In this document: piece by piece, positions 495-21,924 of the stretch
Layout of the letters: each line of letters starts with the position of its first letter
Position numbering within the stretch: position 1 is the first letter of the stretch
NCBI GenBank assembly: GCA_965195285.1
Contig: CBDAFS010000013.1
Coordinates: 1 to 22,110 of the forward strand
Direction of reading: 5' to 3'
Length of the DNA: 22,110 bases
DNA from: an uncultured Aminicenantes bacterium
GTDB taxonomy: Bacteria > Acidobacteriota > Aminicenantia > UBA2199
The notes under the pieces: model-generated
The model's input: only the letters and a program-made list of their open reading frames with translations
What the model was told of the DNA's origin: nothing
The model's database searches: none
Program-made: the position numbers and the translations under genes

Positions 495-500
495 ACCACA

Positions 501-576: not shown

Positions 577-695
577 TCATAACGATTGAGCTCAGCGGTG
601 CGGTTTACCGCATCCGCTGCCCGGTATTACTTTATCGCCTTAACACGTGCTAAGGCAGCAGCGGAATAGCAGTCAGGTGCAATGCCTTGTTGTGT
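577..695 (-). mobile_element. attC: attC site (long, apparently chimeric)
   Basis: Minus strand: R'' ACACAAC, 5 bp, L'' ATTGCAC CTGAC ... L' CTGAGC, 6 bp, R' GTTATGA; internal hairpins. Confidence 0.8.
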
Positions 696-749
696 GGATC
701 ATTCATATCTGCACCAGAACCAATACCATTAAATTTGGCATCATTTTTT

Positions 750-1079
750 TCATAAATTTAAAAATCTCTTTAAGAGAATATCTTCAATATTTTGTCGAGA
801 ATCCAGTATAGATAAAACAAATACTTTTTCTTCAGCTATCCGATAGATCATTCGCCAGGGAGGCACAATCAATTCACGGTATTGAAATATTCCAAAATCT
901 CCCAATTCAGGTATTACCCTACCTCGTTTGGGAGAATGATACAGATTTGAGGTTTTTTTTTTGATTTTCTTTAATATCTTCAATGCATTCGATGTACTGT
1001 CATCAGCAATATACTCAATGATATTGATTAAGTCATTTTCTGCAACTTTCGTCCAAATAACTTGGTATTTTTTATCCAT
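750..1079 (-). CDS. RelE/ParE family toxin
   Basis: YQVIWTKVAENDLINIIEYIA...PKRGRVIPEL...YRELIVPPWRMIYRI signature; overlaps the antitoxin 3' end. Confidence 0.92.
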   Translation of the reverse strand: MDKKYQVIWTKVAENDLINIIEYIADDSTSNALKILKKIKKKTSNLYHSPKRGRVIPELGDFGIFQYRELIVPPWRMIYRIAEEKVFVLSILDSRQNIEDILLKRFLNL

Positions 1080-1347
1080 TTTTTAAATTCTTTTCAAGTT
1101 TCTCAAATACTTCATGCTGTGATATGGCTTTATTATCTTTAATTTCCTGCTCACCTTGAGAGATAAGCTTTAAAATGCCAAGAGCATTTCGCATATTTTC
1201 ATAGCTCTTGGGATCTTGTATGACTGCTTTTGGTTCACCATTCTGAGTTATTATTATGGGACGTTGAGTTTTATTTATTTGTTTAAGTAGATCTGCTGCC
1301 TTTGTTTTAAGATAAGTGATAGATTTAATATCTTCTGTAATGTTCAT
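1072..1347 (-). CDS. Phd/YefM family antitoxin
   Basis: IKSITYLKTKAADLLKQI...PIIITQNGEPKAVI motif; ATG at 1347 follows a GAGGTG SD (ORF track starts at GTG 1356). Confidence 0.92.
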   Translation of the reverse strand: MNITEDIKSITYLKTKAADLLKQINKTQRPIIITQNGEPKAVIQDPKSYENMRNALGILKLISQGEQEIKDNKAISQHEVFEKLEKNLKNG

Positions 1348-1370
1348 TTTTTTCACCTCTCAGTCTTTTT

Positions 1371-1398
1371 ATGATACTATATTCAGTCCGATTGTCAA
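1371..1398 (-). promoter_or_regulatory. Probable sigma70 promoter of the phd-relE module
   Basis: TTGACA-16 bp-TATCAT on the minus strand; TCAGTC direct repeat at 1360 and 1383 may be operator half-sites. Confidence 0.6.
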
Positions 1399-1423
1399 GC
1401 CAAATCTCTATTTTCTTATTGAC

Positions 1424-1494
1424 ATCTAATGACCAGACTCACCGGTCGCTATGAAGCACAGCGAAAAAATGTCAGGTGCAACCACTGGTTAGAT
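1424..1494 (-). mobile_element. attC: attC site with variant crossover triplet
   Basis: Minus strand: R'' ATCTAAC, CAGTG, L'' GTTGCAC CTGAC ... L' GTGAGT, CTGGTC, R' ATTAGAT (ATT instead of GTT). Confidence 0.85.
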
Positions 1495-1600
1495 ACAATC
1501 TCTGAATCTAAACAAGGATTCCTGCAATCACCAATACAGCACCAGAGTATAAGAAAATAATATTCAAATTGAAACCTCCTCAATCAATCTAACCACCAAA

Positions 1601-1795
1601 CTATTTCTTCGTATATATGATATATTCTACAAGCAATAAGAACAATGGGAAAACGACGCTTAAAAGTATCTGGGTATCCAACCCAATAACGCTATCTCCA
1701 TTTATCAGATTCAAAGACCTGAATAAGAGAAATATGATGACTCCTAAAGACAGACTCTGAAGTGTTCCGAAAATCCAAAATATTTTCGTGTTCAT
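1601..1795 (-). CDS. Small two-TM hypothetical membrane protein (cassette ORF)
   Basis: 64 aa, two hydrophobic stretches, strong TAAGGAG SD, followed by an attC. Confidence 0.75.
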   Translation of the reverse strand: MNTKIFWIFGTLQSLSLGVIIFLLFRSLNLINGDSVIGLDTQILLSVVFPLFLLLVEYIIYTKK

Positions 1796-1816
1796 GATTA
1801 ATCTCCTTATGTTAAT

Positions 1817-1975
1817 TTAAGATTTATTTAAAGCCCGAATGTTATACTGATGAGTTAAAAGCAGGCGTAGCATAACTTTCTTCCCCTGCCCCGTGTACCA
1901 GAATGCGCTGGCCTCGCCTGGTTTTGGCTCTGACACAGTAGCTTCCTCGATAATGACAACATGTTTATAGCTCAT
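1817..1975 (-). pseudogene. Collapsed remnant of a medium-chain dehydrogenase/quinone oxidoreductase-like gene
   Basis: GGAGGAG SD plus MSYKHVVI..EEATVSEPKPGE; a shifted frame gives GQRILVHGAG, resembling the MDR nucleotide-binding strand. Confidence 0.5.
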
Positions 1976-2833: not shown

Positions 2834-3853
2834 TTAATTAATGCTTATTCTGGTTTTTCCCTTTGTTTCCTTTATTTGTCCTATTAAAAAGTATTTTTCT
2901 TTATTTGAGCTTAATGCCTTTTCAACCTTTGATAAATTATTTTTATCAATAATCAAAACAATGCCTATCCCCATATTAAAAACTCGAAACTGCTCGCGTT
3001 TACTGATTTTCCCGGCTTTAACCAGAAACTCAAAAATTGGGGGGACTGGCCAGAGTCTTTCGATCTGCGCTCCCAGATCATCCGGTAAAATACGGGGAAT
3101 ATTTTCAATGAATCCCCCTCCGGTAATGTGAGCCATTCCTTTTATCAAATCTTTGGCAATCAGGGTTTGTACGGGCCTTAAATAGGATCTGTGGACTTCC
3201 AGCAATTCTTCCCCAATGGTTTTTTCCAACCCTTCCACCGGACTATCAACTTTTAACTTTAATTTTTCAAAAACAATATTTCTGGCCAGAGAGTATCCAT
3301 TGGTATGAAGCCCTGATGAAGGCAATCCGATAACCAGATCCCCTTTCTTGATTTTCAATCCATCGATAACCTTCTTTTTTTCCACCAACCCAACAATAAA
3401 ACCGGCAAGATCATATTCGCCAGGGCTATAAAATCCGGGCATTTCTGCGGTTTCTCCTCCCAGTAGAACGAATTCATTTTCAACACATCCTTCCAAGATT
3501 CCAGAAACAACCGAGGAAACAATTTCCGGTTCCAGTTTTCCGGTGGAAATATAATCCAGGAAAAACAATGGTTTTGCCCCGTATACCAGTATGTCATTAA
3601 TACAATGATTGACCAGATCTTTTCCAATGGTATCATGTTTATCCATTAAGAAGGCAATTTTTAATTTAGTTCCCACGCCGTCTGCAGAGGAAACCAGTAT
3701 CGGATTTCGAGTTTTTTGTTTCAGAGGGAAAAATCCACTGAATTTTCCGATTTCCTGAATACCCAGTTTTTTAACCATTTCCTTAATCTTCTTGACCGCT
3801 TGATTCCCTTTGTTAATATCCACACCCGATTGAGCATAAAGATCCTTAGGCAT
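2834..3853 (-). CDS. purM: Phosphoribosylformylglycinamidine cyclo-ligase (AIR synthetase)
   Basis: YAQSGVDI, DGVGTKL, GGETAEMPG, SSGLHTNGYSL, HITGGG and FNMGIG motifs; TAAGGAGG SD. Confidence 0.98.
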   Translation of the reverse strand: MPKDLYAQSGVDINKGNQAVKKIKEMVKKLGIQEIGKFSGFFPLKQKTRNPILVSSADGVGTKLKIAFLMDKHDTIGKDLVNHCINDILVYGAKPLFFLDYISTGKLEPEIVSSVVSGILEGCVENEFVLLGGETAEMPGFYSPGEYDLAGFIVGLVEKKKVIDGLKIKKGDLVIGLPSSGLHTNGYSLARNIVFEKLKLKVDSPVEGLEKTIGEELLEVHRSYLRPVQTLIAKDLIKGMAHITGGGFIENIPRILPDDLGAQIERLWPVPPIFEFLVKAGKISKREQFRVFNMGIGIVLIIDKNNLSKVEKALSSNKEKYFLIGQIKETKGKTRISIN

Positions 3854-3899
3854 AGAGGGTTACCTCCTTAGGAACAAATATAACATCCACATTAAAAAA

Positions 3900-3928
3900 A
3901 TTTTATAACTCATGCCAAAAAAAGTCAA
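3900..3928 (-). promoter_or_regulatory. sigma70 promoter for purM
   Basis: TTGACT-17 bp-TAAAAT on the minus strand. Confidence 0.7.
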
Positions 3929-3954
3929 TGCAAAAATCAAAATCAGGCGGGGCA

Positions 3955-3984
3955 TTGACAAATGATAATAAAATTAAATATTAT
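3955..3984 (+). promoter_or_regulatory. sigma70 promoter for the YfcC-family gene (divergent from purM)
   Basis: TTGACA-18 bp-TATTAT. Confidence 0.65.
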
Positions 3985-4022
3985 GAGTCCTTAGCAATTC
4001 AGCTTATCCAGAAAAAAGGAAA

Positions 4023-5450
4023 ATGAAAAAAAGTAAGAAAGCAAAAAAAGGATTCAGACTGCCCCATACCCTGGTTTTAATTTTTATTTTGGTGATACTC
4101 ATGTATGCCCTTACCTGGATAATCCCTTCGGGAGAATTTAACAGAATCGAAAAAACAGTAGAAGGCAAGATCAGAACGGTAACCGAACCGGGTACTTTCC
4201 ACTATATTGCCAAAGAAAGGGTGAATCCGGAATCTCTACTCATTGCTCCGATTGAAGGTTTCAAGGAAGGTGTGTTAATCATAGCCTTTCTTTTTGTCAT
4301 CGGAGGCGCCTTTGCAGTCATTCAGAAAACGGGAACCATTGATATGGCCATAAAAAAAATGGCCCTGGCATTCTCAAATCATCCAAAATATCAAAAATTT
4401 ATCATTCCCGTACTCATGGTGGTGTTTTCCCTGGCCGGTTCCATCTTCGGGATGTCAGAAGAGACCATTCCCTTTATTCTGGTTTTCATTCCACTGGCAT
4501 TATCACTGGGATATGATTCCATTGTAGGAGTTTCAATTCCATTCCTGGGAGCTGCGGCCGGATTTGCCGCTGCATTCTTCAATCCCTTTACCGTGGGAAT
4601 CGCCCAGGGATTAGCGGAGCTTCCACTATATTCGGGATTACCCTACCGATTTTTTGTCTGGATAATCAGTACCGCAGTCGTCATTACCATGGTGATGATT
4701 TACGCCAAAAAAGTGAAGGCAAATCCCAAACTGAGCCCTGTCTATGATATTGATCAAGAACGCCTCCATCAGAGCAACCAGGATCATATTGATATATCGA
4801 AATGGAACTGGAGAAACCGGGCCGTACTGGAAGTGTTTGCCGGAGGAATAATTATCCTGATTGCAGGGATACTATTCCAGAACTGGTATATAAAATCCAT
4901 TGCTGCTGTTTTCCTGGGAATGGGCATTTTTTCTGGACTCGTTTCTCGAATGCCTACCTCTGACATGGCCAGGCATTTTGTCCAAGGCGCAAAGGATATG
5001 ATGAATGTGGCCTTTATTATCTCCTGTGCAAGGGCCATTTTGATCATCGCAGAAGAAGGAAAAATATTGGATACACTTCTTTTTTATGCCTCCCAGTTTA
5101 TCGCTTTTTTCCCAAAGATTATTGCCGCCCAGATGATGTTCATGACCCAATCGGTTATTAATTTCTTCATACATTCTGGAACTGCTCAGGCTGCCTTAAC
5201 CATGCCCATTATGGCCCCCCTGAGTGACCTGGTTGGCATTACCCGCCAAACCACTGTTCTGGCTTTTCAATTGTGTGAATTTGTCATTCCCATACTGCCC
5301 ACATCCGCGGTGACGATGGGAGTGCTGGGGATCGCCAAAATACCGTGGGAAAAATGGGCCAAGTGGTTTTTGCCCATGATGCTGGTTCTGATCATTCTAA
5401 GTTTCTTGCTGTTAATCCCTCCGGTTTTATCCAACTGGGGACCATTCTAA
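4023..5450 (+). CDS. yfcC: YfcC/DcuC-like (ion transporter superfamily) membrane transporter
   Basis: PHTLVLIF..LTWIIPSGEF, GMSEETIPF, NPFTVGIAQ and SGTAQAALTMPIMAPLSDLVG motifs; many TM helices. Confidence 0.9.
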   Translation: MKKSKKAKKGFRLPHTLVLIFILVILMYALTWIIPSGEFNRIEKTVEGKIRTVTEPGTFHYIAKERVNPESLLIAPIEGFKEGVLIIAFLFVIGGAFAVIQKTGTIDMAIKKMALAFSNHPKYQKFIIPVLMVVFSLAGSIFGMSEETIPFILVFIPLALSLGYDSIVGVSIPFLGAAAGFAAAFFNPFTVGIAQGLAELPLYSGLPYRFFVWIISTAVVITMVMIYAKKVKANPKLSPVYDIDQERLHQSNQDHIDISKWNWRNRAVLEVFAGGIIILIAGILFQNWYIKSIAAVFLGMGIFSGLVSRMPTSDMARHFVQGAKDMMNVAFIISCARAILIIAEEGKILDTLLFYASQFIAFFPKIIAAQMMFMTQSVINFFIHSGTAQAALTMPIMAPLSDLVGITRQTTVLAFQLCEFVIPILPTSAVTMGVLGIAKIPWEKWAKWFLPMMLVLIILSFLLLIPPVLSNWGPF

Positions 5451-5467
5451 TCAAAACCGTAGAAGAA

Positions 5468-6529
5468 TTATACAAAATAAGCCAAAATTTCATTTAGCAA
5501 GAGTATTTTATCAGGATTAACCGCCATATTATCCCCTACCTTTATCAATAGATTCTCGTCGCTTAGAAATGCCAATTCCTTTGAATAGGAATGAAAGCTT
5601 GAAATTGGCAATCCCTTTAATCGGCGCAACCCCATGACAATTTTTCTCGACACCGGATTGATTGAATTGATTTCCTTAACCGGCAGGATATTCTGTCTTG
5701 TTTTTTTTAAATAATCAGCGAAATCATCATCATTTTTATAATCCTTGTGGTCTTGAAATCCGGAGGCAGATAAACCGATTCCAATATATTCCTGATTTTT
5801 CCAGTATTTCAGATTGTGTCGGCACTCGAATCCCGGTTTGCAAAAATTAGAAACTTCATAATGGTCAAAGGCGCCCAACCTTTTCCGTGTATAATTATAG
5901 AGTTTATATTGACACTCTTCTGAAGAGTGAGCTGGTAAAACATTTTCCAGTAAATAACAGGACACATGGGGAAGATTAAAGCGTTCAACATGAGAATAAT
6001 TCAAATCCAGCGATTTCTCATTCTGAGTGGGAAGCCCGATAATGAGATCAACATTCAGGTTTGAAAATAAGTGCTTCAGAGCGATCGAAACAGCTTTAAG
6101 AGACTGGTTCACCGAATGACCCCGCTGCAAGTAGTTGAGATCTTCTTCAATGAAAGACTGGATGCCAATACTCAACCGGTTGAAACCGGCCTTTTTAAAA
6201 ATCTTTAACTTCTCATTTGAAATATCTTCAGGATTACACTCAATACTGATTTCAGGATTTGATGCCACCTTGTAATATTTTGAAATCGACTCCATCAAGG
6301 AAAAATAATGTGCCCCTTCCAGCAGGGATGGTGATCCGCCACCAACATAAATCGAATCAATCACATACCCGGAATTCGATTTCATGCGAAGTTCATTTGT
6401 CACTGAATTCAAATATTCATTCACAAGTTGTGAATCAAATGGGACAGTGGCAAAATGACAATAGAAACATTTACGCTTACAAAAGGGGATATGGATATAG
6501 ATTCCGGCTTTCCTTTTCATGAAGCCCAC
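5468..6529 (-). CDS. hemW: Radical SAM heme chaperone HemW (HemN-like)
   Basis: YIHIPFCKRKCFYC (CxxxCxxC), GGGSPS, NRLSIGIQSF, YEVSNF and HNLKYW motifs. Confidence 0.92.
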   Translation of the reverse strand: MGFMKRKAGIYIHIPFCKRKCFYCHFATVPFDSQLVNEYLNSVTNELRMKSNSGYVIDSIYVGGGSPSLLEGAHYFSLMESISKYYKVASNPEISIECNPEDISNEKLKIFKKAGFNRLSIGIQSFIEEDLNYLQRGHSVNQSLKAVSIALKHLFSNLNVDLIIGLPTQNEKSLDLNYSHVERFNLPHVSCYLLENVLPAHSSEECQYKLYNYTRKRLGAFDHYEVSNFCKPGFECRHNLKYWKNQEYIGIGLSASGFQDHKDYKNDDDFADYLKKTRQNILPVKEINSINPVSRKIVMGLRRLKGLPISSFHSYSKELAFLSDENLLIKVGDNMAVNPDKILLLNEILAYFV

Positions 6530-6577
6530 AATATCCGGTTATGGAAACCCTCTATCATGATTCTGCCCGTAACTATC

Positions 6578-7972
6578 TTATTTCTTCTCTGGTTTCCAGC
6601 GAACCCCGTCAGGAGTATCAATCAAGAGAATGCCTTTTGATTTGAGTTCATCTCTAATGGAATCGGCCAGTTGAAAATTCTTTTCCTGGCGGGCCCTTTC
6701 CCGGAGTGTAATTTTTTCCAGGATCTGTTTATCCAGAGTATCGGATGAACTTTGCTTAATCACACCCAGTACAGAATTTACCCGATCAATATATGCCAAA
6801 ATGTTTTCTACATCACCTTTTTTCAGATTATTCATATGCAAATTGATATAATGAATAAATTCAAAAAAAACACCCAGGGCACCAGAAATATTAAAATCAT
6901 CATTCATGCTTTTTTTAAAGCCAATTTCGTTTTCTTTTATAAAATCAGAAAAAGTTTCCGATTCTCCTTCAACAGGCTTTAAACCCTTGAGTGAAAAAAT
7001 GAAATCCGTTATCCGCATCAAGGACTTTTTAGCTTGATCAAGCCCCCTGAAAGTGAAATTAAGCAATTTTCGGTAATGGGTAGACAATAACAAATAACGG
7101 ATAACCATCTCATCATATCCTCTATCGATCAGGTCTGTCAACGTATACTGATTGCCAAGGGATTTGGACATTTTCTGGTCTTCGACAATCAAATGCTGGC
7201 AGTGAATCCAGTAATTCACATACGGTTTTCCGGTTGAACATTGGGATTGAGCGATTTCATTTTCATGATGGGGAAAAATGTTATCTACTCCTCCCATGTG
7301 AATATCAAAATGCTCACCCAGATATTTCATGCTCATGGCCGAACATTCAATATGCCAGCCTGGCCTTCCGTCTCCAAATGGAGTAGTCCAGAAGGGTTCA
7401 CCCTCTTTCTTGCCTTTCCATAATACAAAATCCTGAATATTATCTTTCTCATATTCATCGGCATCACTTCTCAATCCCGTATTCAATTTATCCCGCGACA
7501 CATTGGCCAGCCTGCCATATTGAGGAAATTTCTCAATACTGAAGTAAACAGAATCGCCCTTTTGGTAAGCGTATCCCTTTTTTTCCAGAATCTCAATGAT
7601 AGAAATCATTTCATCAATATGTTGAGTGGCACGGGGATAAACATCCGCTTTAATGATATTCAGCTTAGCGATATCATTAAAAAATGCATCAACGAACTGC
7701 TGGGTAATCGCTTCCAAACTGGAATTCAACTCGTTGGCCTTTTTTATTGTCTTATCATCAATATCGGTAATATTCATTACGTGTTTGACATCATACCCGG
7801 AATAGATAAAATATCTTTTAACCAGGTCTTCAAACACATATGACCTGAAATTTCCAATATGAGCAAAATCATAAACCGTGGGACCGCAGGTATAAACTCC
7901 CATCTTCCCTTTTTCAATGGAATTAAAGGTTTCCAACTGATTGCTTAGGGTATTATAGAAACGGATATCCAT
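6578..7972 (-). CDS. cysS: Cysteine--tRNA ligase
   Basis: YTCGPTVYDFAHIGN, PGWHIECSAMS, FPHHENE and KMSKS motifs; likely start MDIRFYNTL at 7972 after a CAGGAG SD. Confidence 0.98.
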   Translation of the reverse strand: MDIRFYNTLSNQLETFNSIEKGKMGVYTCGPTVYDFAHIGNFRSYVFEDLVKRYFIYSGYDVKHVMNITDIDDKTIKKANELNSSLEAITQQFVDAFFNDIAKLNIIKADVYPRATQHIDEMISIIEILEKKGYAYQKGDSVYFSIEKFPQYGRLANVSRDKLNTGLRSDADEYEKDNIQDFVLWKGKKEGEPFWTTPFGDGRPGWHIECSAMSMKYLGEHFDIHMGGVDNIFPHHENEIAQSQCSTGKPYVNYWIHCQHLIVEDQKMSKSLGNQYTLTDLIDRGYDEMVIRYLLLSTHYRKLLNFTFRGLDQAKKSLMRITDFIFSLKGLKPVEGESETFSDFIKENEIGFKKSMNDDFNISGALGVFFEFIHYINLHMNNLKKGDVENILAYIDRVNSVLGVIKQSSSDTLDKQILEKITLRERARQEKNFQLADSIRDELKSKGILLIDTPDGVRWKPEKK

Positions 7973-7985
7973 TTTAACTCCTGAA

Positions 7986-8735
7986 TTATTTGAATTGGTC
8001 ACCATCATTTAACCGTGAATCAATATACCAGCGAACCTGCTTGCAGGCCCTATCAAAAACGGCGATATCCGCATTGGTCCAGTGGGTTCTATTCAAGGCT
8101 CTTTTCAAGGAACGATGAAATAATCCCTTGTCTTCCTCCTTAAATTCCAGAGATTTCATTAAAGACCATATGTTATCATACAATCTTTTATAATTTTTCT
8201 GCTCCGCCCTCTTGGGAAAAACCATTTCATCTCTGCCCTGTCCTACCAGTTTAAATATTTCATACACAATTACCATGACCGACTGGGCAAGATTCAATGA
8301 AGGGTAAGACACTGCCGAAGGAATCTGAATATAATAATTGGCAAATTGACTCTCATCAATGGTAACCCCGGAATCCTCCCGTCCAAACACCACGGCAATT
8401 TTTTCTTTTCGAATTCTGCCTGTTATTAATTCAGCAGCTCTGGAAGGAGGTAAAAAATCTTTCTTCCACTTCCCCTTTCTGGTAGTGGCCAGGAAAACCG
8501 TGGACATATCATCCAGTGCAGCCATTAACGTATCAAATTCACGACTGTTTTTTATAATTTCTTGAGATCTGTAGCCCAATTTTCTCTGTTCTTCGGCATC
8601 ACGGTATCCAACAGGGTTTACCAATCTTAAGTGGGAAACACCCATATTTTTCATTGCCCGGGCAACAGAACCGATGTTTCCGGGATTTTTTGGTTCAACC
8701 AATACAATAACCAAATTATTTAATAATTTCTCCAT
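7986..8735 (-). CDS. trmJ: SPOUT RNA methyltransferase, TrmJ/LasT family
   Basis: IVLVEPKNPGNIGSVARAMKNMG, VFGREDSG and YPSLNLAQSV motifs; likely start MEKLLNN at 8735 because a promoter lies within the longer ORF call. Confidence 0.88.
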   Translation of the reverse strand: MEKLLNNLVIVLVEPKNPGNIGSVARAMKNMGVSHLRLVNPVGYRDAEEQRKLGYRSQEIIKNSREFDTLMAALDDMSTVFLATTRKGKWKKDFLPPSRAAELITGRIRKEKIAVVFGREDSGVTIDESQFANYYIQIPSAVSYPSLNLAQSVMVIVYEIFKLVGQGRDEMVFPKRAEQKNYKRLYDNIWSLMKSLEFKEEDKGLFHRSLKRALNRTHWTNADIAVFDRACKQVRWYIDSRLNDGDQFK

Positions 8736-8763
8736 GGGAATATGTTGAAATATTATGGTTAGA

Positions 8764-8792
8764 ATTATAGTATAAAAATTCATCTTGGGCAA
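8764..8792 (-). promoter_or_regulatory. Internal sigma70 promoter for trmJ-cysS-hemW
   Basis: TTGCCC-17 bp-TATAAT on the minus strand. Confidence 0.6.
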
Positions 8793-8845
8793 ATTCATTC
8801 TAAAAACAAAAGGACAGATTACCAAAAAAAATGCTGAATAAATGA

Positions 8846-9796
8846 TTACTTTTTTTTTAATTCATAATACAGATAATTTTGAGGTATTTTTCCAGTTCCA
8901 ATCATTTTTTTTTCGAGTTGAACCAAACGACCGGTTTCTGATTTACCTACTTCTGTTTGATGCCAGTTGTTTATATTCAAACGGCGAGGTTTCAAATATG
9001 AGGTGAGAAAAAATGGAAACAACAAGGTTCCGCCAAAAGATATGACCTCAACCAAGCCAAAATTGTCCCGTAACATTTGATCTAAATCACCTGATCGAAT
9101 ACATTCTGAAGGATCATCGGAACGCCTCCACATTTTTTTAAAATCTTTCTGATTAACAGGTTTTCGACAGGCAATTAATTGATCTGGTAGAGAATCAAGC
9201 CATTCATTAATGATATCAATAATCGATTGTTCAAATCCAAATTCCGAAAGGCCGACATATTCATCAACATACATAATACCATCACGGGATAACTGATTAT
9301 TCAGTTGAGGGAAAATGTATTCGAAATTTTTAAAGTGGTGAAAAGCACCAACATCAATAATGGTATTAAACAAACCCAGGGAAGCGTAATCATAAGAATT
9401 GGCATCAGATTTAACAAATGAATAAGGAATATCAATATTCAATTCTTTCATGTTGTGGTAAAACCGTTCTCCTTCCCCTTTTGAAATATTCAGGTAAACA
9501 ATTTCGGTTGTATCTCTTTTGGTTAGAAAAGCTTCTGCTGCCATTCCATAACCATCTCCAAAGCAAAGAACTCTCCCAAAAGGAGTTGCTCTATTCTGTA
9601 TTTTTTTTGTATACCAGCTAAGAGATGCATCCCCGGTAATTTCTTTCTGAATAATTTTCCTAATAATTTTATTATTCCACCAGTATTTAATTGAAGCAGC
9701 AGTTTCTGTTTCATCCCAGAATTTAGCTGCCTTTTTTTTATCACTTAACAACAATAAAATTTTTTTTAAAATTCGAATCAAATAATATCTGACCAA
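8846..9796 (-). CDS. Class I SAM-dependent methyltransferase, substrate unknown
   Basis: RVLCFGDGYG (variant motif I), SDAN, AFHHF, GIMYVDEYVG and DPSECIRS motifs; TTG start after a TAAGGAG SD; AT-rich. Confidence 0.72.
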   Translation of the reverse strand: MVRYYLIRILKKILLLLSDKKKAAKFWDETETAASIKYWWNNKIIRKIIQKEITGDASLSWYTKKIQNRATPFGRVLCFGDGYGMAAEAFLTKRDTTEIVYLNISKGEGERFYHNMKELNIDIPYSFVKSDANSYDYASLGLFNTIIDVGAFHHFKNFEYIFPQLNNQLSRDGIMYVDEYVGLSEFGFEQSIIDIINEWLDSLPDQLIACRKPVNQKDFKKMWRRSDDPSECIRSGDLDQMLRDNFGLVEVISFGGTLLFPFFLTSYLKPRRLNINNWHQTEVGKSETGRLVQLEKKMIGTGKIPQNYLYYELKKK

Positions 9797-9805
9797 TATA
9801 ACTCC

Positions 9806-11104: not shown

Positions 11105-11116
11105 TGTTGTTTGCCT

Positions 11117-14100: not shown

Positions 14101-14908
14101 CAGATTTTTTTTTATATTGAAGCCACTCAGCTGTTTTAATATATTTTTCCAGGGTTTCTTTTATGGGTTTTGCATACGGACCCTCAACTATTTTAACATT
14201 ATGAATACGGGTATTAAAGGTAGTATGTCGGCAGTGATCCGACCAATATGTATCCAGCATTTTGATCTCGGTTATGGTGGGATCCCTCTTTTCCTGCTCC
14301 CGAAAATACTGTTGACAAAACGAAATATCCTCGAGACCCATGGCCAATCCCCGGGAATCAATAAATTTTTGAAGTTCACCCTGAGAAAAACCCCTGAAAC
14401 CATATATGGATTTTATATCTTCCGGAACCAGGAACTGCATCCTCAAATCCTCAGGCTTATCCAGCTTTGCCTCTCTGGAATCCACAGGATTAATGAGATA
14501 TTTTTTGATTCTATCCATATCCTCGGAGGATATTTTACCCTTTAAAATAATGAATCTGGCTGTTACCACCAGAGGTTTATTTTGTCGACTAATAATCTGA
14601 ATACATTGGGCTGCTGAGTCCGCTCTCTGATCATACTGGCCGGGTAAATATTCAATAGCAACGATTTTTTCATTTCCTTGTAGCTGAATTCTTTCCTCAT
14701 AAATATTATCCAGTGGCGGTTCGGAAAGAATTGAATTTTTCACCCGGTTAAATTCTGGCTGTGAAATTTCAGAAATATCATACCGATTCAGCAGGCGAAG
14801 GTTCTCCAAATTTTCAATGCCAAGGTTAAATTTTAGATCCTGAAAAAGACTCTGTGCTTCTATATCAAAACCTTTCTTTTTTTCAACAAATATTCTTTTT
14901 ATGCTCAC
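11117..14908 (-). CDS. purL: Phosphoribosylformylglycinamidine synthase, large fused form (synthetase + glutaminase)
   Basis: YWSDHCRHTTF, KNETHNHPTEIEPFGGAAT, DFGAGG and SESQERM motifs; C-terminal GICNGFQ, SHGEG, AHSER; 1263 aa. Confidence 0.98.
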   Translation of the reverse strand: MSIKRIFVEKKKGFDIEAQSLFQDLKFNLGIENLENLRLLNRYDISEISQPEFNRVKNSILSEPPLDNIYEERIQLQGNEKIVAIEYLPGQYDQRADSAAQCIQIISRQNKPLVVTARFIILKGKISSEDMDRIKKYLINPVDSREAKLDKPEDLRMQFLVPEDIKSIYGFRGFSQGELQKFIDSRGLAMGLEDISFCQQYFREQEKRDPTITEIKMLDTYWSDHCRHTTFNTRIHNVKIVEGPYAKPIKETLEKYIKTAEWLQYKKKSAECQDVDLSLMNLATLSMKELREKGKLQDMEMSGEINACSIIRTIKRNNKEEEWLILFKNETHNHPTEIEPFGGAATCLGGAIRDPLSGRAFVYQAMRVSGSGDPRASISETLPGKLPQKKITTEAALGYSSYGNQIGLATGLVTEIYHDKYVSKRMEVGAVVGAVSRKNIKREEPIPGDVVILVGGRTGRDGIGGATGSSKKHTEKSIFTAGAEVQKGNPPEERKLQRLFRNPEVTRLIKRSNDFGAGGVSVAIGELADGLDINLDKIPKKYEGLDGTELALSESQERMAVVISPGDVNRFKRYSEAENLEATEVARVTSSDRLRMYWRDEAIVDISRKFIDTNGVRKHIDVVVSAPESRDNFFIESVEKITNRPDDLKTIWLENLRDLNNCGQIGLVERFDSTIGAGTVLLPFGGQYQLTPIEAMVAKIPVLTSDTLTGTVMTFGFNPELAVWSPFHTGIYSIIEAVSKVVATGGDYRSIRFSLQEYFEKLGDNPSKWGKPFAALLGAYYALTEFELASIGGKDSMSGSFEDLHVPPTLIAFAVDVVDLETVISPELKQSNTLIVYLKAERDLNECPRFDVLKPMFSAVTENIQKKKILSAHTVRGGGLAAALSKMCLGNKIGLFLKNPMKISDLLSPDFGSIVLEVEKNVNLNSMFKGVQYQILGHTMDKPVLSVNGTEIGIEELMLNWKKPLERVFPTLLTPKENTCESFIYTERNEKKPKVKIAKPRILITVFPGTNCEYDTQKAFETAGGIVETVVFRNLKPSDIIQSLNSMKKKIENSQIIVIPGGFSSGDEPDGSGKFITAVFRNPEIQNAVMKFLHKRDGLMLGICNGFQALIKLGLVIYGEIRELDESSPTLTFNTIGRHVSRMIRTKVVSVLSPWFLHSRSGDIHVIPVSHGEGRFVAKQEKFKKLLSAGQITTQYVDMQGDPSMDFEFNPNGSMNAVEGITSPDGRILGKMAHSERKGNHVAINIPGNKDQKLFESGIDYFG

Positions 14909-14927
14909 GGTTAGATATTACCTGATC

Positions 14928-15812
14928 TTATAGGGGTTTTAAGGCCTTGCGGATTTCATGAATATGTTCGGGTGTTGTTCCACAGCATCCCCCGATAATT
15001 GAGACACCCGCTTGGACTAAATCTTTACTCTTCTCTGCCATAAAGCCGGGGGTTTCCGGGTAATAGGGAAGATTATTTCTCAGCTCGGGGAGCCCGGCAT
15101 TGGACTGAATGATGAGTGGAACCGGGGTCAATTGATTAAATTCCCGGGCTATCAAAATCATCTTCTCGATTCCGTTCCCACAATTTGAGCCAACAATATC
15201 CGCTCCTGCCGCCGTTAATTGCTGCACTGCTGTGGGAATATCCACTCCCATAATAGTAAAAAACCCCCTGGGAGTGGAATCAAATGTCATGGTGGCCATA
15301 ACCGGAATATCCGGCGCAATAGATTTGGCGGCTTTTACTGCCAGAACAGCCTCCTGAACATCGGTCATGGTCTCAACACAAACAACATCGATTCCATCAT
15401 CTATCAATGCGTTAAGCTGGCGGTAAAAATTATCATACATTACTTCGGATTCGATATCCCCATAGGGTTTTAACAGTTTTCCACTGGGGCCACAGGAAGC
15501 CGAAATAAAAACACTTCCATCTATCGCATTTATTACGGCTTTCAGGGCATTCCTATTGATCTCTTCTGTTTTTTCCTCCAGGGAATAATCGGCCAATTTC
15601 AAGGGTGATGCCCCAAATGTATTGGTCTGTAAAATCTCAGCTCCGGCATTATAATAAAGGCGAGCAATTTCTTCAAGAATTTCCGGATGTGATAAATTAA
15701 ACGTTTCCGGAGGCATTCCGGCCGGAAGCCCCCTTTGCATCAACAGAGAGCCCATGGCCCCATCGGCAATAAAAATTTCCCCTCTATTCAACCGTTTTAA
15801 AATCGATTCCAT
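14928..15812 (-). CDS. Homocysteine S-methyltransferase family protein (stand-alone MetH Hcy-binding domain)
   Basis: DGAMGS, TNTF, ETM, GSNCG, NAGLP and GGCCGTTPEHI motifs, including the three Zn-ligand cysteines. Confidence 0.93.
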   Translation of the reverse strand: MESILKRLNRGEIFIADGAMGSLLMQRGLPAGMPPETFNLSHPEILEEIARLYYNAGAEILQTNTFGASPLKLADYSLEEKTEEINRNALKAVINAIDGSVFISASCGPSGKLLKPYGDIESEVMYDNFYRQLNALIDDGIDVVCVETMTDVQEAVLAVKAAKSIAPDIPVMATMTFDSTPRGFFTIMGVDIPTAVQQLTAAGADIVGSNCGNGIEKMILIAREFNQLTPVPLIIQSNAGLPELRNNLPYYPETPGFMAEKSKDLVQAGVSIIGGCCGTTPEHIHEIRKALKPL

Positions 15813-15813
15813 G

Positions 15814-16452
15814 CTAATTATGACCGGTCATGGCCTTGATGCGTTCCACTGCATGACCGACATCATATCCATACTCATCAGCCCCGATTTCATCGGCAAA
15901 GGCCTTGGATACCGGAGCCCCTCCGATAATGGTTTTTATTTGACCTGATAATTCTTCTCTTTTGATAATATCCACAACCTGTTTCATCACAGCCATGGTG
16001 GTAGTTAAAAGTGCGGACATACCAATAATCCTGGCATTATTGCCTTTAGCCGTATCCACAAATTTTTCCGGGGCTACATCATTTCCCAGGTCAATGACTT
16101 CATAACCTGCCCCTTTAAGCATAATTCCCACCAGGTTTTTCCCGATATCATGCAAATCACCCTGAACCGATCCGATAACAACCTTTCCCCGGGAGGGAAT
16201 ACCCTCTTCAATGAGCATAGGCTTCAGCAAGTCCATTCCTGCATACATGGCCTTGGCGGCTAACAGAACATCCGGCAAAAAAATTTCATGGATTCTAAAC
16301 TGATCCCCGATAATATTCATTCCGGCAATTAATCCATCATTGAGAATTTCCAGGGGAGATTTGTGCTGATCCAGGGCGCTTTGGGTAAGTTCGGCTACCT
16401 TGGTATCATCTCCCATCTGCAGATGCTGTGAGATTTGATTTAATATTTCCAT
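15814..16452 (-). CDS. Cobalamin-binding corrinoid protein (MtbC/MttC-like)
   Basis: Cap domain EIFLPDVL; GDLHDIGKNLV (DxHxxG); MSALLTTT and IIGGAPV motifs. Confidence 0.95.
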   Translation of the reverse strand: MEILNQISQHLQMGDDTKVAELTQSALDQHKSPLEILNDGLIAGMNIIGDQFRIHEIFLPDVLLAAKAMYAGMDLLKPMLIEEGIPSRGKVVIGSVQGDLHDIGKNLVGIMLKGAGYEVIDLGNDVAPEKFVDTAKGNNARIIGMSALLTTTMAVMKQVVDIIKREELSGQIKTIIGGAPVSKAFADEIGADEYGYDVGHAVERIKAMTGHN

Positions 16453-17179
16453 GTTTTATCTCCTTGTCTTCCTGAATTATTGGTTTTATCCTCTGCAGAC
16501 AGGATTTGTGTGAACAAAGTCTGCAAAATGAAAAATTGTTTTTGAAAATATGAATATCTCTCTTCCCGGCCACCAGGACACCGGTTATTGATTTTAAAGG
16601 GACCATCAAAAACTGCTGATTTAGGGTGATACCGATCTCCTCTGGTTCAAGGTATTCAAAGAGTCTTTTTTGGGCGCTGAGGTGCCACCCACAGTATCCT
16701 GGGCTGTATATCAGAACGGTTGTAGATGGCTCGCATTGATTTTTTTCCATTAAAAATTGGTAAAACTCCTGCTCCCCGATGCGGGTGGCCATATCGGCTC
16801 CCTCAGAGGCAACAGAATCCAGCATTGATCCCAGTGCAAAATCATTATTATTAAACAACCGGGTAATCTCTTGACTGATTGTTTCTCCCAGGGTGAAGGC
16901 TAAGATTGCCAGGTGTTGAGACTGAGGATAAATGATCCCCAATGGAGTCTTTTTCTCATTCATCCCCATTCCCGAATAAACTTGACTGAAATCCTTAATT
17001 GAAATCGTTTCGATTACCCCTTTGGGTTCAGCCAGTTCCCGGTACAGAAGCAGTGCTTTGGAATAAAGCTCGACTATTTTTTTCGATGGTTTTACACCTC
17101 TGGCGATCCCCTGGGATAAGAACACACCCTCCTGGGACGGTTCGATTTTTTCAATCCGGGGAATTAAAAACTGTCTCAT
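16406..17179 (-). CDS. Vitamin B12-dependent methionine synthase activation-domain-like protein
   Basis: AFTLG, LDSVASE, YSPGYCGW, IGITL..FLMVPLKSITG and C-terminal CRLCSHKSC, typical of short stand-alone reactivation domains. Confidence 0.85.
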   Translation of the reverse strand: MRQFLIPRIEKIEPSQEGVFLSQGIARGVKPSKKIVELYSKALLLYRELAEPKGVIETISIKDFSQVYSGMGMNEKKTPLGIIYPQSQHLAILAFTLGETISQEITRLFNNNDFALGSMLDSVASEGADMATRIGEQEFYQFLMEKNQCEPSTTVLIYSPGYCGWHLSAQKRLFEYLEPEEIGITLNQQFLMVPLKSITGVLVAGKRDIHIFKNNFSFCRLCSHKSCLQRIKPIIQEDKEIKHGNIKSNLTASADGR

Positions 17180-17185
17180 GAAGGT

Positions 17186-18643
17186 TTATTGAGGAAGATT
17201 TTTCATACCATATCTTCGGGCTTCTTCTTCCATACGGCGGGTCAGTTCAGATTTCATACCCTCAGGTAAGGGTGAGGGTTGATAGGAGTCTATTAACCGT
17301 GTCACCTCCTGAGTAGCACGCTCTTTAAGCGTTAAGGCTCCTTCTTCTCTCCATCGGGAAAGATTGGCTCGATCAATCACCTTGCCCGGGAAATAATGCT
17401 CCTCCTTCAGATAACGACGGGTATGAGTTGAAATGAGCAGATGTTTTTCCTGCAGTAATTCCTTAAAAATAGGAAGAGCCGGGAAGTCTTCCTTGGGTTC
17501 AATCCCCCGAATCATTCGAAGAACCATTCCGCATATCTCATTATCAAGAACCAGTTTTTCAAGGCTCTGGCAATTCTCGAAATCCAGCATACCAGGACCA
17601 GAAATATTGTTGATCCCGCTCAGGGCTGCCAAAGTGGCTCCCATGGATGATTCTAATCCTGCCTGGGCATCCAGATTTTTGGCATCACTCAATGAGATAT
17701 AGGCCTGAGTCGGGATTCCCAGGTACTTACCGATTTCATTGTAGGCACAATCAATCATCTGGGTTTCCACCGCCCCCATTGGGGTGGTTTCATATCTGAT
17801 ATCAAAAAAAGCAGGAGAACCACCATACAGTAACGGAGCCCCGGGATTTGAAAGCTGACTTATAACAATTCCACTGAGGGTTTCTGCAGTATGCTCTACC
17901 AGAGTTCCAACCAGGGTAACCGGTGCCATAAAACCGGAAAGTGGCATGGAAATAAACTCAACCGGGATGCCCCACTGGGCGCAATCCACCACATTTTGTG
18001 AAGTTACATCACTCCATTTCAGAGGAGAAGTGGGGCAACAGGAAAAAACCGTCAGGGGTTTTTCTCTCAATGCATTTTCACTTCCCCTTACGATTAACTG
18101 TAAATCCCTCATCACATTAAAGGCATCTACTGTAAACGTACCGGTAACCACAGGTTTTTTACAATATAACAGGCTGAGGTAAAGGCGATAACTGTCTGAT
18201 ATCTTTTCCACAACATCAGAGGGAATAAATGCCGTACTCTGGGAAGTAATATGTTCCAGACCTTCCACCAGCTTGGCATACCGGATATAATCATGAGTAG
18301 TGGGTTTACGGATTTGATCGGTCTGGCCATCCAATATATGCAGGGCTGCCGAACCGGGAGTGAAATACACATTGTAATCTGAGAAATCATGGGTTTCATT
18401 TCCCAAAACATCATACAATTTAAAGGCAGAGGGAACGGATTTCAGAGCATCGTCAATAATTTCATTGGTATATATTACCTGAAAATTTTCCATATCCACG
18501 ATTGCACCATGATCGGATAAAAGAGCCAAAATCTGTTTGTTATGAATCCTGGTACCGAGTTTACACAGGATATCTCTGGATTCCGAAATGATTCTCTCAA
18601 TTAGATCATTGGATAAGAATTTCAAAGTCGGTCTTGCAGACAT
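17186..18643 (-). CDS. Trimethylamine methyltransferase (MttB) superfamily protein, non-pyrrolysine
   Basis: PTSPLKW, APVTLVGTL, PGAPLLYG, LSDAKNLDAQAGLES and GPGMLDFE motifs; uninterrupted 485 aa; CAGGAGG SD. Confidence 0.93.
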   Translation of the reverse strand: MSARPTLKFLSNDLIERIISESRDILCKLGTRIHNKQILALLSDHGAIVDMENFQVIYTNEIIDDALKSVPSAFKLYDVLGNETHDFSDYNVYFTPGSAALHILDGQTDQIRKPTTHDYIRYAKLVEGLEHITSQSTAFIPSDVVEKISDSYRLYLSLLYCKKPVVTGTFTVDAFNVMRDLQLIVRGSENALREKPLTVFSCCPTSPLKWSDVTSQNVVDCAQWGIPVEFISMPLSGFMAPVTLVGTLVEHTAETLSGIVISQLSNPGAPLLYGGSPAFFDIRYETTPMGAVETQMIDCAYNEIGKYLGIPTQAYISLSDAKNLDAQAGLESSMGATLAALSGINNISGPGMLDFENCQSLEKLVLDNEICGMVLRMIRGIEPKEDFPALPIFKELLQEKHLLISTHTRRYLKEEHYFPGKVIDRANLSRWREEGALTLKERATQEVTRLIDSYQPSPLPEGMKSELTRRMEEEARRYGMKNLPQ

Positions 18644-18677: not shown

Positions 18678-18706
18678 ATTATAGATAATCAGGCTATTAA
18701 AGTCAA
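18678..18706 (-). promoter_or_regulatory. sigma70 promoter heading the mttB-...-purL-rarA gene run
   Basis: TTGACT-17 bp-TATAAT on the minus strand, about 35 bp upstream of the ATG. Confidence 0.8.
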
Positions 18707-18747
18707 TTATCGGAATATGTCTCGGGGCCAGCTTGACAGGCGACTCT

Positions 18748-19563
18748 TCAGCCCAGTGCCACATCGAGGATCATCATCACCGTAAAACCTATCATGGTTG
18801 CCATGGTTACTATATCAATATTTGCATCGTTCCGCTGAGATTCCGGAATCAGTTCTTCCACCACTACAAAAATCATTGCTCCGGCAGCAAAGCAAAGTGC
18901 ATAGGGCAGGATGCTCTGTATATTAAGAACAAATACTGCTCCGAGCACCCCGGCAATGGGTTCAACCAGACCGGATGCCTGCCCCATAATGAAGCTCTTC
19001 GTCCGCCCCATTCCTTCTCTCCTCAATGGTAACGATACCGCAGCTCCTTCCGGGAAATTCTGGAGACCGATTCCGATTGCCAACGCAATGGCGCCGCCAA
19101 GCGTAGCAGAAGGAAGATGGGCTGCCACAGCCCCGAAAGCAACGCCGACAGCAAGACCTTCGGGGATATTATGCAGTGTGATTGCAAGTACCAGCAGCGT
19201 GCTACGCTGCCAGGATGTCTTTATTCCCTCACTTTGCTCTATAGCCAATCTTGAATGAAGATGCGGCAGTAAACGATCAGCCAGTCTCATGAAAAGCCCA
19301 CCACCCATGAAGCCAATTACGGCTGTCAGCCATGGGATGTGGCCCATCTGTTGGGCCATTTCTATGCCAGGAGCTAGCAGAGACCAGAAGCTTGCAGCAA
19401 TCATGACACCGGCAGCGAAACCGAGCATAGAATCCATGAGTTTTGGTTTTACCGTCTTTGTAAAGAAAACGAGTGCCGCTCCTGCCGCAGTCACGCCCCA
19501 GGTAAAGAGCGTAGCCATAAGCGCCTGCATGATGGGACTATATTGTTGAAAAAAGTCGATCAT
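18748..19563 (-). CDS. ZIP family (ZupT/GufA-like) divalent metal transporter
   Basis: GFAAGVMIAASFWSLL, HNIPEGLAVG, QNFPEG and ELIPE motifs; likely ATG at 19563 after AAAGGA (the ORF-track TTG lies in the attC R' box). Confidence 0.95.
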   Translation of the reverse strand: MIDFFQQYSPIMQALMATLFTWGVTAAGAALVFFTKTVKPKLMDSMLGFAAGVMIAASFWSLLAPGIEMAQQMGHIPWLTAVIGFMGGGLFMRLADRLLPHLHSRLAIEQSEGIKTSWQRSTLLVLAITLHNIPEGLAVGVAFGAVAAHLPSATLGGAIALAIGIGLQNFPEGAAVSLPLRREGMGRTKSFIMGQASGLVEPIAGVLGAVFVLNIQSILPYALCFAAGAMIFVVVEELIPESQRNDANIDIVTMATMIGFTVMMILDVALG

Positions 19564-19575
19564 CTTATTTCCTTT

Positions 19576-19645
19576 CGCCAACGATTGAGTTCACCTGCAT
19601 TTTGGATCGAAGCGGAAAAATGTCAGGTGCAACGATTTGTTAGGC
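19576..19645 (-). mobile_element. attC: attC site (canonical)
   Basis: Minus strand: GCCTAAC AAATC GTTGCAC CTGACATTTT...AAAATGCAG GTGAAC TCAATC GTTGGCG; 5/6-bp spacers and an extrahelical base in L''. Confidence 0.92.
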
Positions 19646-19652
19646 AATTAAT

Positions 19653-19739
19653 TTATTTAGTATGTCTTTTTGTATACAATAGATTGTCACTACCTATTAA
19701 TATCATAATTGGTATTAGTTTAACAGTAAGAATTTTCAT
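19653..19739 (-). pseudogene. 28-aa stub ORF, probable remnant of a deleted cassette gene
   Basis: MKILTVKLIPIMILIGSDNLLYTKRHTK, signal-peptide-like start, stops 7 bp before the attC R'' box. Confidence 0.3.
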
Positions 19740-19831
19740 ATTATTTTCCCTTAGTATTATTACAGCACTTAAATTTTCTTGAAACCGAAAATCTATTAAA
19801 CAGCTGGTCGCAATTGAACTTTATTGCAATA

Positions 19832-20950
19832 TTATCTCATTGCTTTGATAATGCGCTTATTTACATTCTGCATATAGATTTCGATAATGATGGAAATTAA
19901 TAAAAGTGCTATAATCACGAAAAAAACTATTGGATCTTGTTTTATCGTTTGAATGCTAAAAATAACCAGAACAGTGAAATTTGATAAAAAAGCTAAACCG
20001 ACTATGATTTTTGAAGCATTAGTCTCTAAGGTCAAACTTTTTAGGTGCCCCAGATGTACAACCGAGTAGACAATAAGGTAGACGATACTTCCAAGGATAG
20101 CGATTCTAGAGAGATCAAGAAAGTTTGCAACAAGCAGGATAAGAATCGATGTTGTTAACAGGCCAGCAGTGCCAGCATGCCATAACTTACGTCCTGTGAA
20201 GTTGGGTAGCTCGCCATCTTTAGCCAGAAGTAGCGTCATGTTTGCCGTGCTATATAGATTGGCATTAATACTCGATGCAGCAGACATTAGTGCAGTAAGG
20301 GAAATAATGGTAAAGCCTATCTGTCCAAAAATTGGTTTTGCAGCTTCTGCCATTGCATAATCTTTTGCTCGAATGATATCAGACAATTCGAGATTACCAA
20401 ATACTGCAAATGAGGCTCCAACATAGATAAATATAACAATCCCGATAGCACCGTAGATAGCTCGAGGCAGGGTATGCGATGGGTTGGGCATATCTTCAAC
20501 CGTATTGGTAATAACACCAAAACCATGATAAGCAAGTAGACAAATCGCCACTGTACTTAAAATGCTGACAATAGAAACATTGCTACCTTGCATGGAAAGG
20601 AGTTCTGGTTTGATTAACAGCGAACCACCAATAATGAATATCGCTAAGATGAATATTTTTGAAATAACAATAAATTTCTCTACTTTGCCGACCACATCTG
20701 CACCAACAAAATTGATAAATGTTAGTATTATAATTATGACTGAAGCGAAAATATTGATCAGAAGTCCTGAAGGGTGAGATGTAAATAAAGTTACTGCATA
20801 GCTGCCAAAAGCCTTGGCAACCATAGCCATAACCACGGTAATCGAAAAGTAAAGAAGGATTGAAAGAACACCAGTGATGTAGCCACTACCGTACCCATGA
20901 ACCAAATATTCAACAATTCCGCCTGAAGAAGGGTACTTAACCCCAAGAAT
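19832..20950 (-). pseudogene. APC family amino-acid permease, 5'-truncated
   Basis: Frame is open back to 20950 (LGVKYPSSGGIVEYL, an internal APC loop) but is preceded by TAA TAA with no start or first TM helices; AYHGFGVI..EDMPNP motif. Confidence 0.8.
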
Positions 20951-20953
20951 TTA

Positions 20954-21802
20954 TTAACCCTTTGCACCGGATCCTATGGAATAAAGTTTTTTATCTGATC
21001 CAAGTTTTTCAGATGGACCCAGCACCATTCGCCAGCAAGGCACTTCTTCCTCTAAAGATTGAATAGCCTTGAAAAATTCAACTGCCTTCATATTACTCTC
21101 AAGCACTCCAATTCTCATATTATGATTGTGCAATTCAATTGCAAAGGTTTCAATTAGTTCATTAGGAGTAATACGGTCTGATAAAACTGCTAAAGGAACT
21201 ACAGAAATAACATCAATACCAGGACGCCCAAATATATAACCGGTGATTGAATTTTCAATTTTTGACACAAAACATAAATTGGGAAACAATTCATATCGAC
21301 GTCTAAGAAAAAAACCACGATCATCCCCAAAGGCCTGGGTATCAAGGTCGCAAATTTTAATTAAATCATCTGGTGTAGCCTTCTGAACCAAAGGACTATT
21401 TCTGCCTTTTATCTTTCCCTCAAACCGTAGAGATTTTGTGATTTTTCTGAATCCATATTTTGTGTAAATTGGAACCGCATCCAGGTCAGCGTCCAGGTAT
21501 ATATTTTGGATACCATTAGATTGGAGATATTGGATTGTATGCTCAAATAGTTTACTTCCATATCCACGACCACGCATTTCTTTAATAATAACCAATTCAC
21601 CAATAAAACCATTGGTTTGATACGGTATCGCTACACAAATTCCAATTTTCTTTGAATCTTTCTCAGCAACAAAACAACCGTTGGGATTAAAGGAAAGAAA
21701 ACTTTTGAATACTTCTCTGGTTTCACTTGCCCACCCTTCCTTACTGGTGCAGTGATAAGCAAATTCGATGTCAGAATGATTCATATTTCTGATTAACATC
21801 AT
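20954..21802 (-). CDS. GNAT N-acetyltransferase, tandem-domain (YitH-like)
   Basis: GFIGELVIIKEMRGRGYGSKL motif A and IYTKYGF; second domain DTQAFGDDR. Confidence 0.9.
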   Translation of the reverse strand: MMLIRNMNHSDIEFAYHCTSKEGWASETREVFKSFLSFNPNGCFVAEKDSKKIGICVAIPYQTNGFIGELVIIKEMRGRGYGSKLFEHTIQYLQSNGIQNIYLDADLDAVPIYTKYGFRKITKSLRFEGKIKGRNSPLVQKATPDDLIKICDLDTQAFGDDRGFFLRRRYELFPNLCFVSKIENSITGYIFGRPGIDVISVVPLAVLSDRITPNELIETFAIELHNHNMRIGVLESNMKAVEFFKAIQSLEEEVPCWRMVLGPSEKLGSDKKLYSIGSGAKG

Positions 21803-21867
21803 TAATTCCTATCCATGCGATAAAAGTCCCAAACATACTATCATATTACCTACTCATTTTTTTCGGG

Positions 21868-21924
21868 GCATAACATTTGAAATCACCGACTCGTTTACGC
21901 GTCCGGTGCATTGATTTGTTATGC
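21868..21924 (-). mobile_element. attC: attC site (short, 57 bp)
   Basis: Minus strand: GCATAAC AAATC AATGCAC CGGAC...GTCG GTGATT TCAAAT GTTATGC; the upstream ORF stop TAA lies inside R''. Confidence 0.9.

Follow-up and report, generated by a model that had tools for sequence, protein, structure and literature searches.

Two attC arrays flank a housekeeping block

The DNA considered here, referred to as the window, is the whole of contig CBDAFS010000013.1 (C13; 22,110 nucleotides) of an uncultured Aminicenantes bacterium, whose genome assembly GCA_965195285.1 (G000) comprises 3.28 Mb in 62 contigs and is 95% complete; the metagenome runs that carry organism labels are sediment or seep runs, and the host is likely a sediment member of its lineage. 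In this window, a block of housekeeping genes that includes cysS, purL, and purM, all single-copy, lies between two arrays of integron-type attC sites, as an earlier interpretation made from the letters alone (the sequence-only reading) had recognized. On balance, we consider it probable that these are two separate arrays flanking a conserved block and that each has grown from its own copy of a ~70-bp promoter-plus-attI-like module, which is scattered in the chromosomes of the genus.

The four attC sites of the window (Table 1) share the R''-L''-L'-R' anatomy with one extra base in L'' and are all read on the minus strand. They conform to the attC consensus, that is, an imperfect palindrome of the form R''(RYYYAAC)-L''...L'-R'(GTTRRRY) with an extrahelical base, except that the site at 1424-1494 has ATT for GTT. 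A rule-based scan that was blind to the sites recovered two of the four, and R1, an attC model built from 12 G000 sites, scored them at 50 to 76 bits, a circular result for these four, which are among the 12. The profile of the R1 alignment gave no match in the reversed genome, and R1 found new attC sites in 6 of 30 relatives; the folding z-scores of the sites are modest (-1.0 to -2.8). The assignment as attC sites made in the sequence-only reading is thereby upheld, and so are the motifs that it had seen on both sides, which exceed chance within the window: GTCAGGTGCAA occurs at 672, 1471, and 19622 and AACGATTGAG at 581 and 19580, and the respective three and two matches were reached in 0 of 100 shuffles. 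AACGATTGAG has 10 copies genome-wide and is hence weak evidence alone; an 18-mer shared by 1465 and 19616 has only 2 copies across the 3.28-Mb genome. The left array consists of two attC sites in the window plus C60:211 on an adjoining contig and the right array of two in the window plus C56:2365, and each flank falls under the definition of an attC-site cluster that lacks integron-integrases (CALIN), with no fewer than two attC sites and no intI within 4 to 10 kb.

The uniform orientation of the sites was also correctly read, but it says little, because 21 of the 22 annotated open reading frames (ORFs) lie on the same minus strand. Along the joined contigs, the attC direction coincides with the G-rich strand in 16 of 17 bins, and by this measure the leading-strand template is likely the one that holds the attC bottom strands, an arrangement reported for 25 of 30 sedentary integrons (PMC5371416).

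Separate insertions into a conserved backbone

The region 3950-18716 of the window is matched by one contig of the relative G002 and by two contigs of G001. Beyond the right array, contig C56 of G000 carries fumarase genes, hsp20, and a broken dadA, and beyond the left array, C60 carries glycerate kinase-dcd; in G001, the order is fumarase genes-hsp20-dadA-mttB, all adjacent, on one side and purM-small ORFs-glycerate kinase-dcd on the other. Since the outer neighbors on both sides keep their order in relatives, the two arrays are, on the evidence of gene order, separate insertions into a conserved backbone, within which the housekeeping block has not moved. This removes the option, left open by the sequence-only reading, of one array split by rearrangement, and a housekeeping block inserted into an array is, like it, very improbable. 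Such an origin would account for the same attC family and direction on both sides and for the position of 10 of the 11 strongest attC matches on the 82-kb C56-C13-C60 path, but the outer neighbors are ancestral on both sides, the same attC family is present in other genomes of the family, and the direction matches that of the local genes and of the G-rich strand.

We give hardly any credence to the flanks being assembly chimeras. This is a metagenome assembly from samples with several strains, and duplicated gene ends on C56 and C60 are known from it; on the other side stand the contigs and unitigs of four runs from two studies (X1, X18, X19, and X20), of which X1 is a possible source of the assembly and so not independent. 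The purM junction near 2800, where a misassembly would have refuted the sequence-only reading, is bridged in all four runs by unitigs from 2648, which in X1, X18, and X19 are 16 to 17.6 kb long. For the junction near 18740 the outcome is divided: the window form, in which mttB is followed by the ZIP transporter piece, is bridged in X1 and in one low-depth (minor) X18 contig, but in the main X18 form and in X19 and X20, position 18748 is joined to 20951 with 37 other letters, and at this place both the attC at 19576 and the ZIP gene are lacking. In these three runs, the GNAT array abuts mttB, and the 2.2-kb piece that holds the attC at 19576-19645 is missing from most of their strains.

Composition of the left and right arrays

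At the left flank, the array does not begin directly after purM, as the sequence-only reading had it: a racemase gene without attC comes first, and the first intact attC lies 1.3 kb from purM. The lone core between the racemase gene and this attC is likely a decayed attC, judging from its letters. A racemase paralogue, 71% identical, stands behind a module on C40; in G003, at 96% identity, another gene starts at the same base after purM; and R1 found no attC within 1.5 kb at the 24 purM loci of relatives. The left end of C13 (minus) overlaps the start of C60 (plus) by 123 nt, and C60 continues with another attC, a module (C60:889-967), a cassette, and then glycerate kinase-dcd. The R' core GTTATGA of the vapBC cassette pairs with the next R'' core, ACATAAC, at 6 of 7 positions. 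In run X1, the vapBC cassette (window 1-597) occurs behind two different attC sites at depths of 16.7 and 17.5, which indicates two copies or two strains.

The right end of C13 continues, with no overlap, the frame of the GNAT gene that ends C56, and from this continuity we infer the C56-C13 join. The right array is headed by modules at C56:3019-3096, flush with the dadA stop, and at C56:456-533. In G003, a module is likewise found at the dadA stop, where identity ends at GTTAGGC and another gene follows; no module follows dadA in G001 or G002. The sequence-only reading had proposed a comparison with relatives for empty sites. The right site is indeed empty in G001, which has dadA directly next to mttB; after purM, the same genome has a module. 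In G000, C56:3097-3590 holds a dadA-like oxidoreductase gene with large internal deletions, which is a 388-aa open frame in G003. An attC nearly identical to 19580-19645 (3 differences) is present on other contigs of X19 and X20 at about genome depth and with different flanks.

Comparison of the strains revealed that the flanking DNA switches at the G|TT crossover point, the strain contigs diverging at the R' cores at 579 and 21863. In particular, contigs of X18 and X20 depart from the window at 579, where X19 has ~990 extra letters, and the main X18 strain has another attC ahead of the tandem-GNAT cassette, with divergence from 21863. These two changes fit crossover at G|TT. Furthermore, an X19 contig joins 697 to 1601 via 402 other letters, which replace 698-1600, and X19 and X20 differ from the window at 1846-1912.

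Toxin-antitoxin pairs are frequent cargo: besides the phd-parE and vapBC units of the window, there are a HigBA-like pair on C40 and, inside the right array, a two-gene unit with its own upstream region (C56:615-2124), which we take to be of the AbiE type from its look.

Table 1. Annotated features of the window, with coordinates in nucleotides
Position	Strand	Feature	Basis and remarks
1..494	-	vapB-like and vapC (PIN) toxin-antitoxin cassette	Pfam PIN; runs on into C60, own attC at C60:211-280
577..695	-	attC, long variable stem	R1 49.6 bits; extra cassette joined at R' core in other strains
750..1356	-	Phd/YefM antitoxin and ParE-family toxin unit	Pfam; strain-variable
1424..1494	-	attC, R' core changed to ATTAGAT	R1 60.5 bits
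1601..1795	-	64-aa cassette gene, no Pfam family	ORF list, Pfam
1841..1847	-	Lone R''-like core GTATAAC after short ORF remnant	Read from sequence; no R1 score
2069..2776	-	Asp/Glu racemase, 53% GC, without attC; first accessory gene after purM	Pfam
2834..18643		mttB, split MetH-like genes, purL, mgsA, methyltransferase-like ORF, SpoU methylase, cysS, hemN-like, DcuC-family carrier, purM	Pfam; colinear in G001 and G002
18749..20950	-	Strain-variable piece: 5'-truncated amino-acid permease, ORF remnant, attC, ZIP transporter (51% GC)	Strain contigs
19576..19645	-	attC	R1 75.5 bits; found by rule-based scan
20954..21802	-	Tandem-GNAT cassette gene	Pfam
21868..21924	-	attC	R1 50.9 bits; found by rule-based scan
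21919..22110	-	C-terminal part of GNAT gene	N-terminal part ends C56, behind module at C56:456-533

A dispersed promoter-plus-attI-like module

The module is an AT-rich repeat of ~70 bp that ends in TAATAG|TTAGG and contains a predicted promoter, with TTGA(T/A)A and TAAAAT at a promoter-like spacing of 17 (by eye from the alignment). R2, a module model trained on 18 copies (16 of them from G000), found 17 copies in G000, 7 in G001, 5 in G002, and 4 in G003, as well as one copy each in two other family genomes and none in 25, with at most 145 candidates scored per genome. The reversed genome had no module match, the module pattern matched 11 of 72 genomes at the order level, and viral contigs gave no match to it; exact module matches numbered two in genome collections and three in metagenome collections, none with IntI similarity in the flanks that were fetched. 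In 28 copies (14 from G000 and 14 from relatives), the top base has a mean frequency of 0.88 ahead of the G and of 0.96 at the TT; at +3 to +6 this drops to 0.63, and further on to 0.44. The copies were aligned on an AATAG anchor, by which the conservation at -4 to 0 is inflated. No terminal inverted repeats or target duplication were seen by eye around the module, the sole empty/filled pair (dadA) being from diverged species.

At two broken intI genes, the module has the position of an integron platform, next to the intI start and facing away: on C60, a module of sequence type B faces the intI remnant, in the attI position, and in G013, a module of type A abuts a frameshifted intI. Moreover, different genes are found behind modules at the same locus. 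At serC, the first genes in G000, G002, and G003 are three different ones, G002 having a type A module and the other two type B; a cassette at the smc locus of G002 is 87% identical to one at another locus, on C35, in G000. After purM, which the sequence-only reading had viewed as the usual place of an intI-attI platform, G001 has a module copy at 120 bp (31 bits), alone among the 24 purM loci tested; the promoter-attI part of that expectation is thus borne out there, but intI is absent.

It could be proposed that the arrays are CALINs of the ordinary kind, seeded by attC x attG recombination at secondary sites, and that the module is only a strong promoter favoring the retention of cassettes behind it. 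Cassettes are reported to insert genome-wide at GWT sites (10.1101/2022.09.11.507474), CALINs at conserved loci by housekeeping genes are known (10.1101/2025.06.18.660453), 10 of the 17 G000 modules have no attC, and the left array of the window has no module. Nevertheless, we judge this explanation distinctly improbable, in that the module stands where attI would be at intI remnants, many copies show a change of the sequence downstream at one fixed GTT, and the presence of 17 dispersed copies with the same core end would not be accounted for by a mere promoter.

Another possibility, unlikely to our mind though somewhat less so, is that each locus once received a whole integron (intI, cassette promoter Pc, attI, and cassettes) and then lost its own intI, leaving the modules as independent relics. 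The presence beside modules of two intI genes that were broken independently (G000 C60 and G013), the start of the G013 module at an ATG-like start on the opposite strand, and the inactivation of intI by large deletions described in Xanthomonas (10.1101/2025.06.18.660453) agree with such a history. Conversely, a tblastn search detected an IntI-like remnant beside only 1 of the 17 G000 modules and 1 of the 23 module loci of relatives, plus one weak generic match there, and at dadA the module directly abuts the stop codon, without any residue of intI. A ~150-bp element located upstream of several modules was considered as an intI 3' flank and dropped; only 2 copies of it exist in G000, and it resembles an older module in decay.

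Inside the arrays of this assembly, we could also notice ~90%-identical duplicates of host-gene 3' ends, namely, of glycerate kinase (49 nt), ispG (120 nt), and dadA (~20 nt plus the module). They suggest that blocks from relatives may have been held at one side by homology and then stacked next to the array already there; G000 has ComEC.

In two genomes, a module stands ahead of a gene labeled by eye as RRM-like RNA binding (L078, G000:C2, and L108, G003:C121), with a weak attC behind it in both, and this gene is possibly a domesticated cassette.

Integrase genes

No protein of G000 exceeds the TIGR02249 cutoff for IntI (0 of 8 matches), the best match being a 62-residue C-terminal piece, and a complete integron, with an intact intI adjoining an array, was not found in this genome. 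Two full-length matches to PF13495 are generic tyrosine recombinases only, and four other full-length tyrosine recombinases are far below the IntI cutoff. The sequence-only reading, which had noted the lack of an integrase, was right as regards an intact gene, but an intI remnant of ~350 bp is located on the adjoining contig C60 (C60:32019-32371). It consists of an N-terminal scrap and the 62-residue C terminus, with 64 to 73% identity to three intact IntIs of the family, and faces an array in which successive cores pair at 6 to 7 of 7 bases. The left array is ~32 kb away from it, and the window's right end 54 kb. Of the 72 genomes of the order, which are incomplete assemblies, 5 yielded an intact IntI. 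A second ispG 3' end, 90% identical, lies between an attC and the intI remnant (C60:31620-31810), and the main ispG is cut off by the right end of C52. A link of the right end of C60 to C6 or C52 was considered; there is no overlap, and the join is not claimed.

Proposed mechanism and points against it

We hypothesize that the module is the intI-attI intergenic region (Pc plus attI) after its separation from intI. A trans-acting IntI, encoded by the now-deleted gene of C60 or by one in kin, would have loaded cassettes at these docks and at attC sites, and module-plus-cassette blocks may also have come from relatives through homology-anchored recombination, which would leave the short duplicates of host-gene ends. 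Deletion would erode the arrays and would have taken the module after purM in G000. Furthermore, loss of intI may be favored: the same-direction att sites around cysS amount to a formal 18-kb cassette, the excision of which would be lethal, and excision by attI x attI recombination is reported to occur (PMC4792948). The repeated loss of intI may thus be due to the risk that an active IntI poses where direct-repeat att sites surround cysS. The bracketing of essential genes is incidental, arising from two such loci 16 kb apart, and does not mark a mobile unit. The sequence-only reading had offered a distributed system with a trans-acting integrase that seeds arrays at operon edges; this option is supported, and the dispersed promoter-attI modules provide a physical basis for it, but the trans integrase would have to be presumed, no intact IntI having been found in G000. 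The broader proposition, that the genus has a decentralized integron in which Pc-attI docks were copied away from intI to at least a dozen operon edges, receive cassettes in trans or through exchange with kin, and then domesticate single ones, and in which att direct repeats around essential genes select for integrase loss, is advanced tentatively, and we would doubt it about as readily as accept it.

Several results weigh against the growth of each array from its own module. No module is detectable in the window, including after purM (best R2 score, 10.5 bits, inside a gene), so that for the left array the link to a module rests on the copy in G001 and on the one further down the array at C60:889-967; for the right array, it passes through the C56-C13 join, which has no overlap. 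In the stretches examined downstream of the 17 G000 modules, attC is clear at 5, doubtful at 2, and absent at 10. No module was found beside the 5 intact IntIs of the family, some of these loci ending early, and none of the four genus genomes (G000 and three others, 70 to 95% complete) yielded an intact IntI, all four being incomplete assemblies. The strain changes at 697-1601 and 18748-20951 are not at crossover points. Finally, the spread of the module is the weak step of the model, because Loot et al. (10.1101/2022.09.11.507474) found in their E. coli assay that genomes do not take up attI sites by insertion.

Relation to known integrons

CALINs and single attC sites lacking integron-integrases (SALINs), as described in PMC4889954 and 10.1101/2022.09.11.507474, resemble the loci analyzed here in being small attC clusters without a nearby intI, some of them by core genes, and mobilizable in trans; the mobilization of CALIN cassettes in trans is treated as an accepted idea in PMC9668308. 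However, CALINs are defined regardless of attI (PMC4889954), whereas many of the present loci have a head made up of Pc and an attI-like site, of two sequence types. For secondary loci that are fixed and accompany an inactive intI, the closest precedent is Xanthomonas (10.1101/2025.06.18.660453), where intI is inactivated genus-wide and arrays occupy conserved places by housekeeping genes, as here; different from our case, the available portion of that account reports no attI copy at the secondary loci, and here a genome has as many as 17 modules, most of them followed by a single gene or a short array. As in a sedentary chromosomal integron, there is one module that lies opposite an intI remnant, at the head of an array whose cores match, but intI is here reduced to the ~350-bp remnant, and the Pc-attI part has been multiplied away from it. 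Natural transformation is described as replacing cassette arrays without IntI (PMC3410848), and here the array content likewise differs from strain to strain without a working IntI; in that description the arrays are replaced, whereas the duplicated host-gene ends observed here would suggest stacking.

According to PMC4889954, attI sites cannot be searched for in most integrons, and the diverse marine attI sites of PMC3146285 are placed next to intI. In a literature search of limited coverage, we found no description of multiplied solo Pc-attI heads or dispersed attI copies, and there is good evidence at the sequence level that the underlying system may be regarded as a new variant of integron organization. 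The origin of CALINs and of single cassettes without an integrase is presented as open in the literature consulted, in which PMC4889954 lists four routes. If true, hidden solo attI sites would be a further route to CALINs, invisible to tools based on attC, and the modules would offer a concrete and testable case.

Other observations in the window

An Rfam scan of the window returned no integron-related family and one match, to PYLIS_3 (17593-17692, minus strand; 47.7 bits against a cutoff of 38). The match is inside mttB, which is a 485-aa frame without internal stop, and it is probably a similarity of coding sequence. In the region 14928-18643, an MttB-family methyltransferase, a MetH reactivation-like domain, a corrinoid protein, and a homocysteine S-methyltransferase are encoded by four separate genes, an arrangement kept in G001 and G002; they read as a split methionine synthase, possibly fed by a methylamine-type donor.

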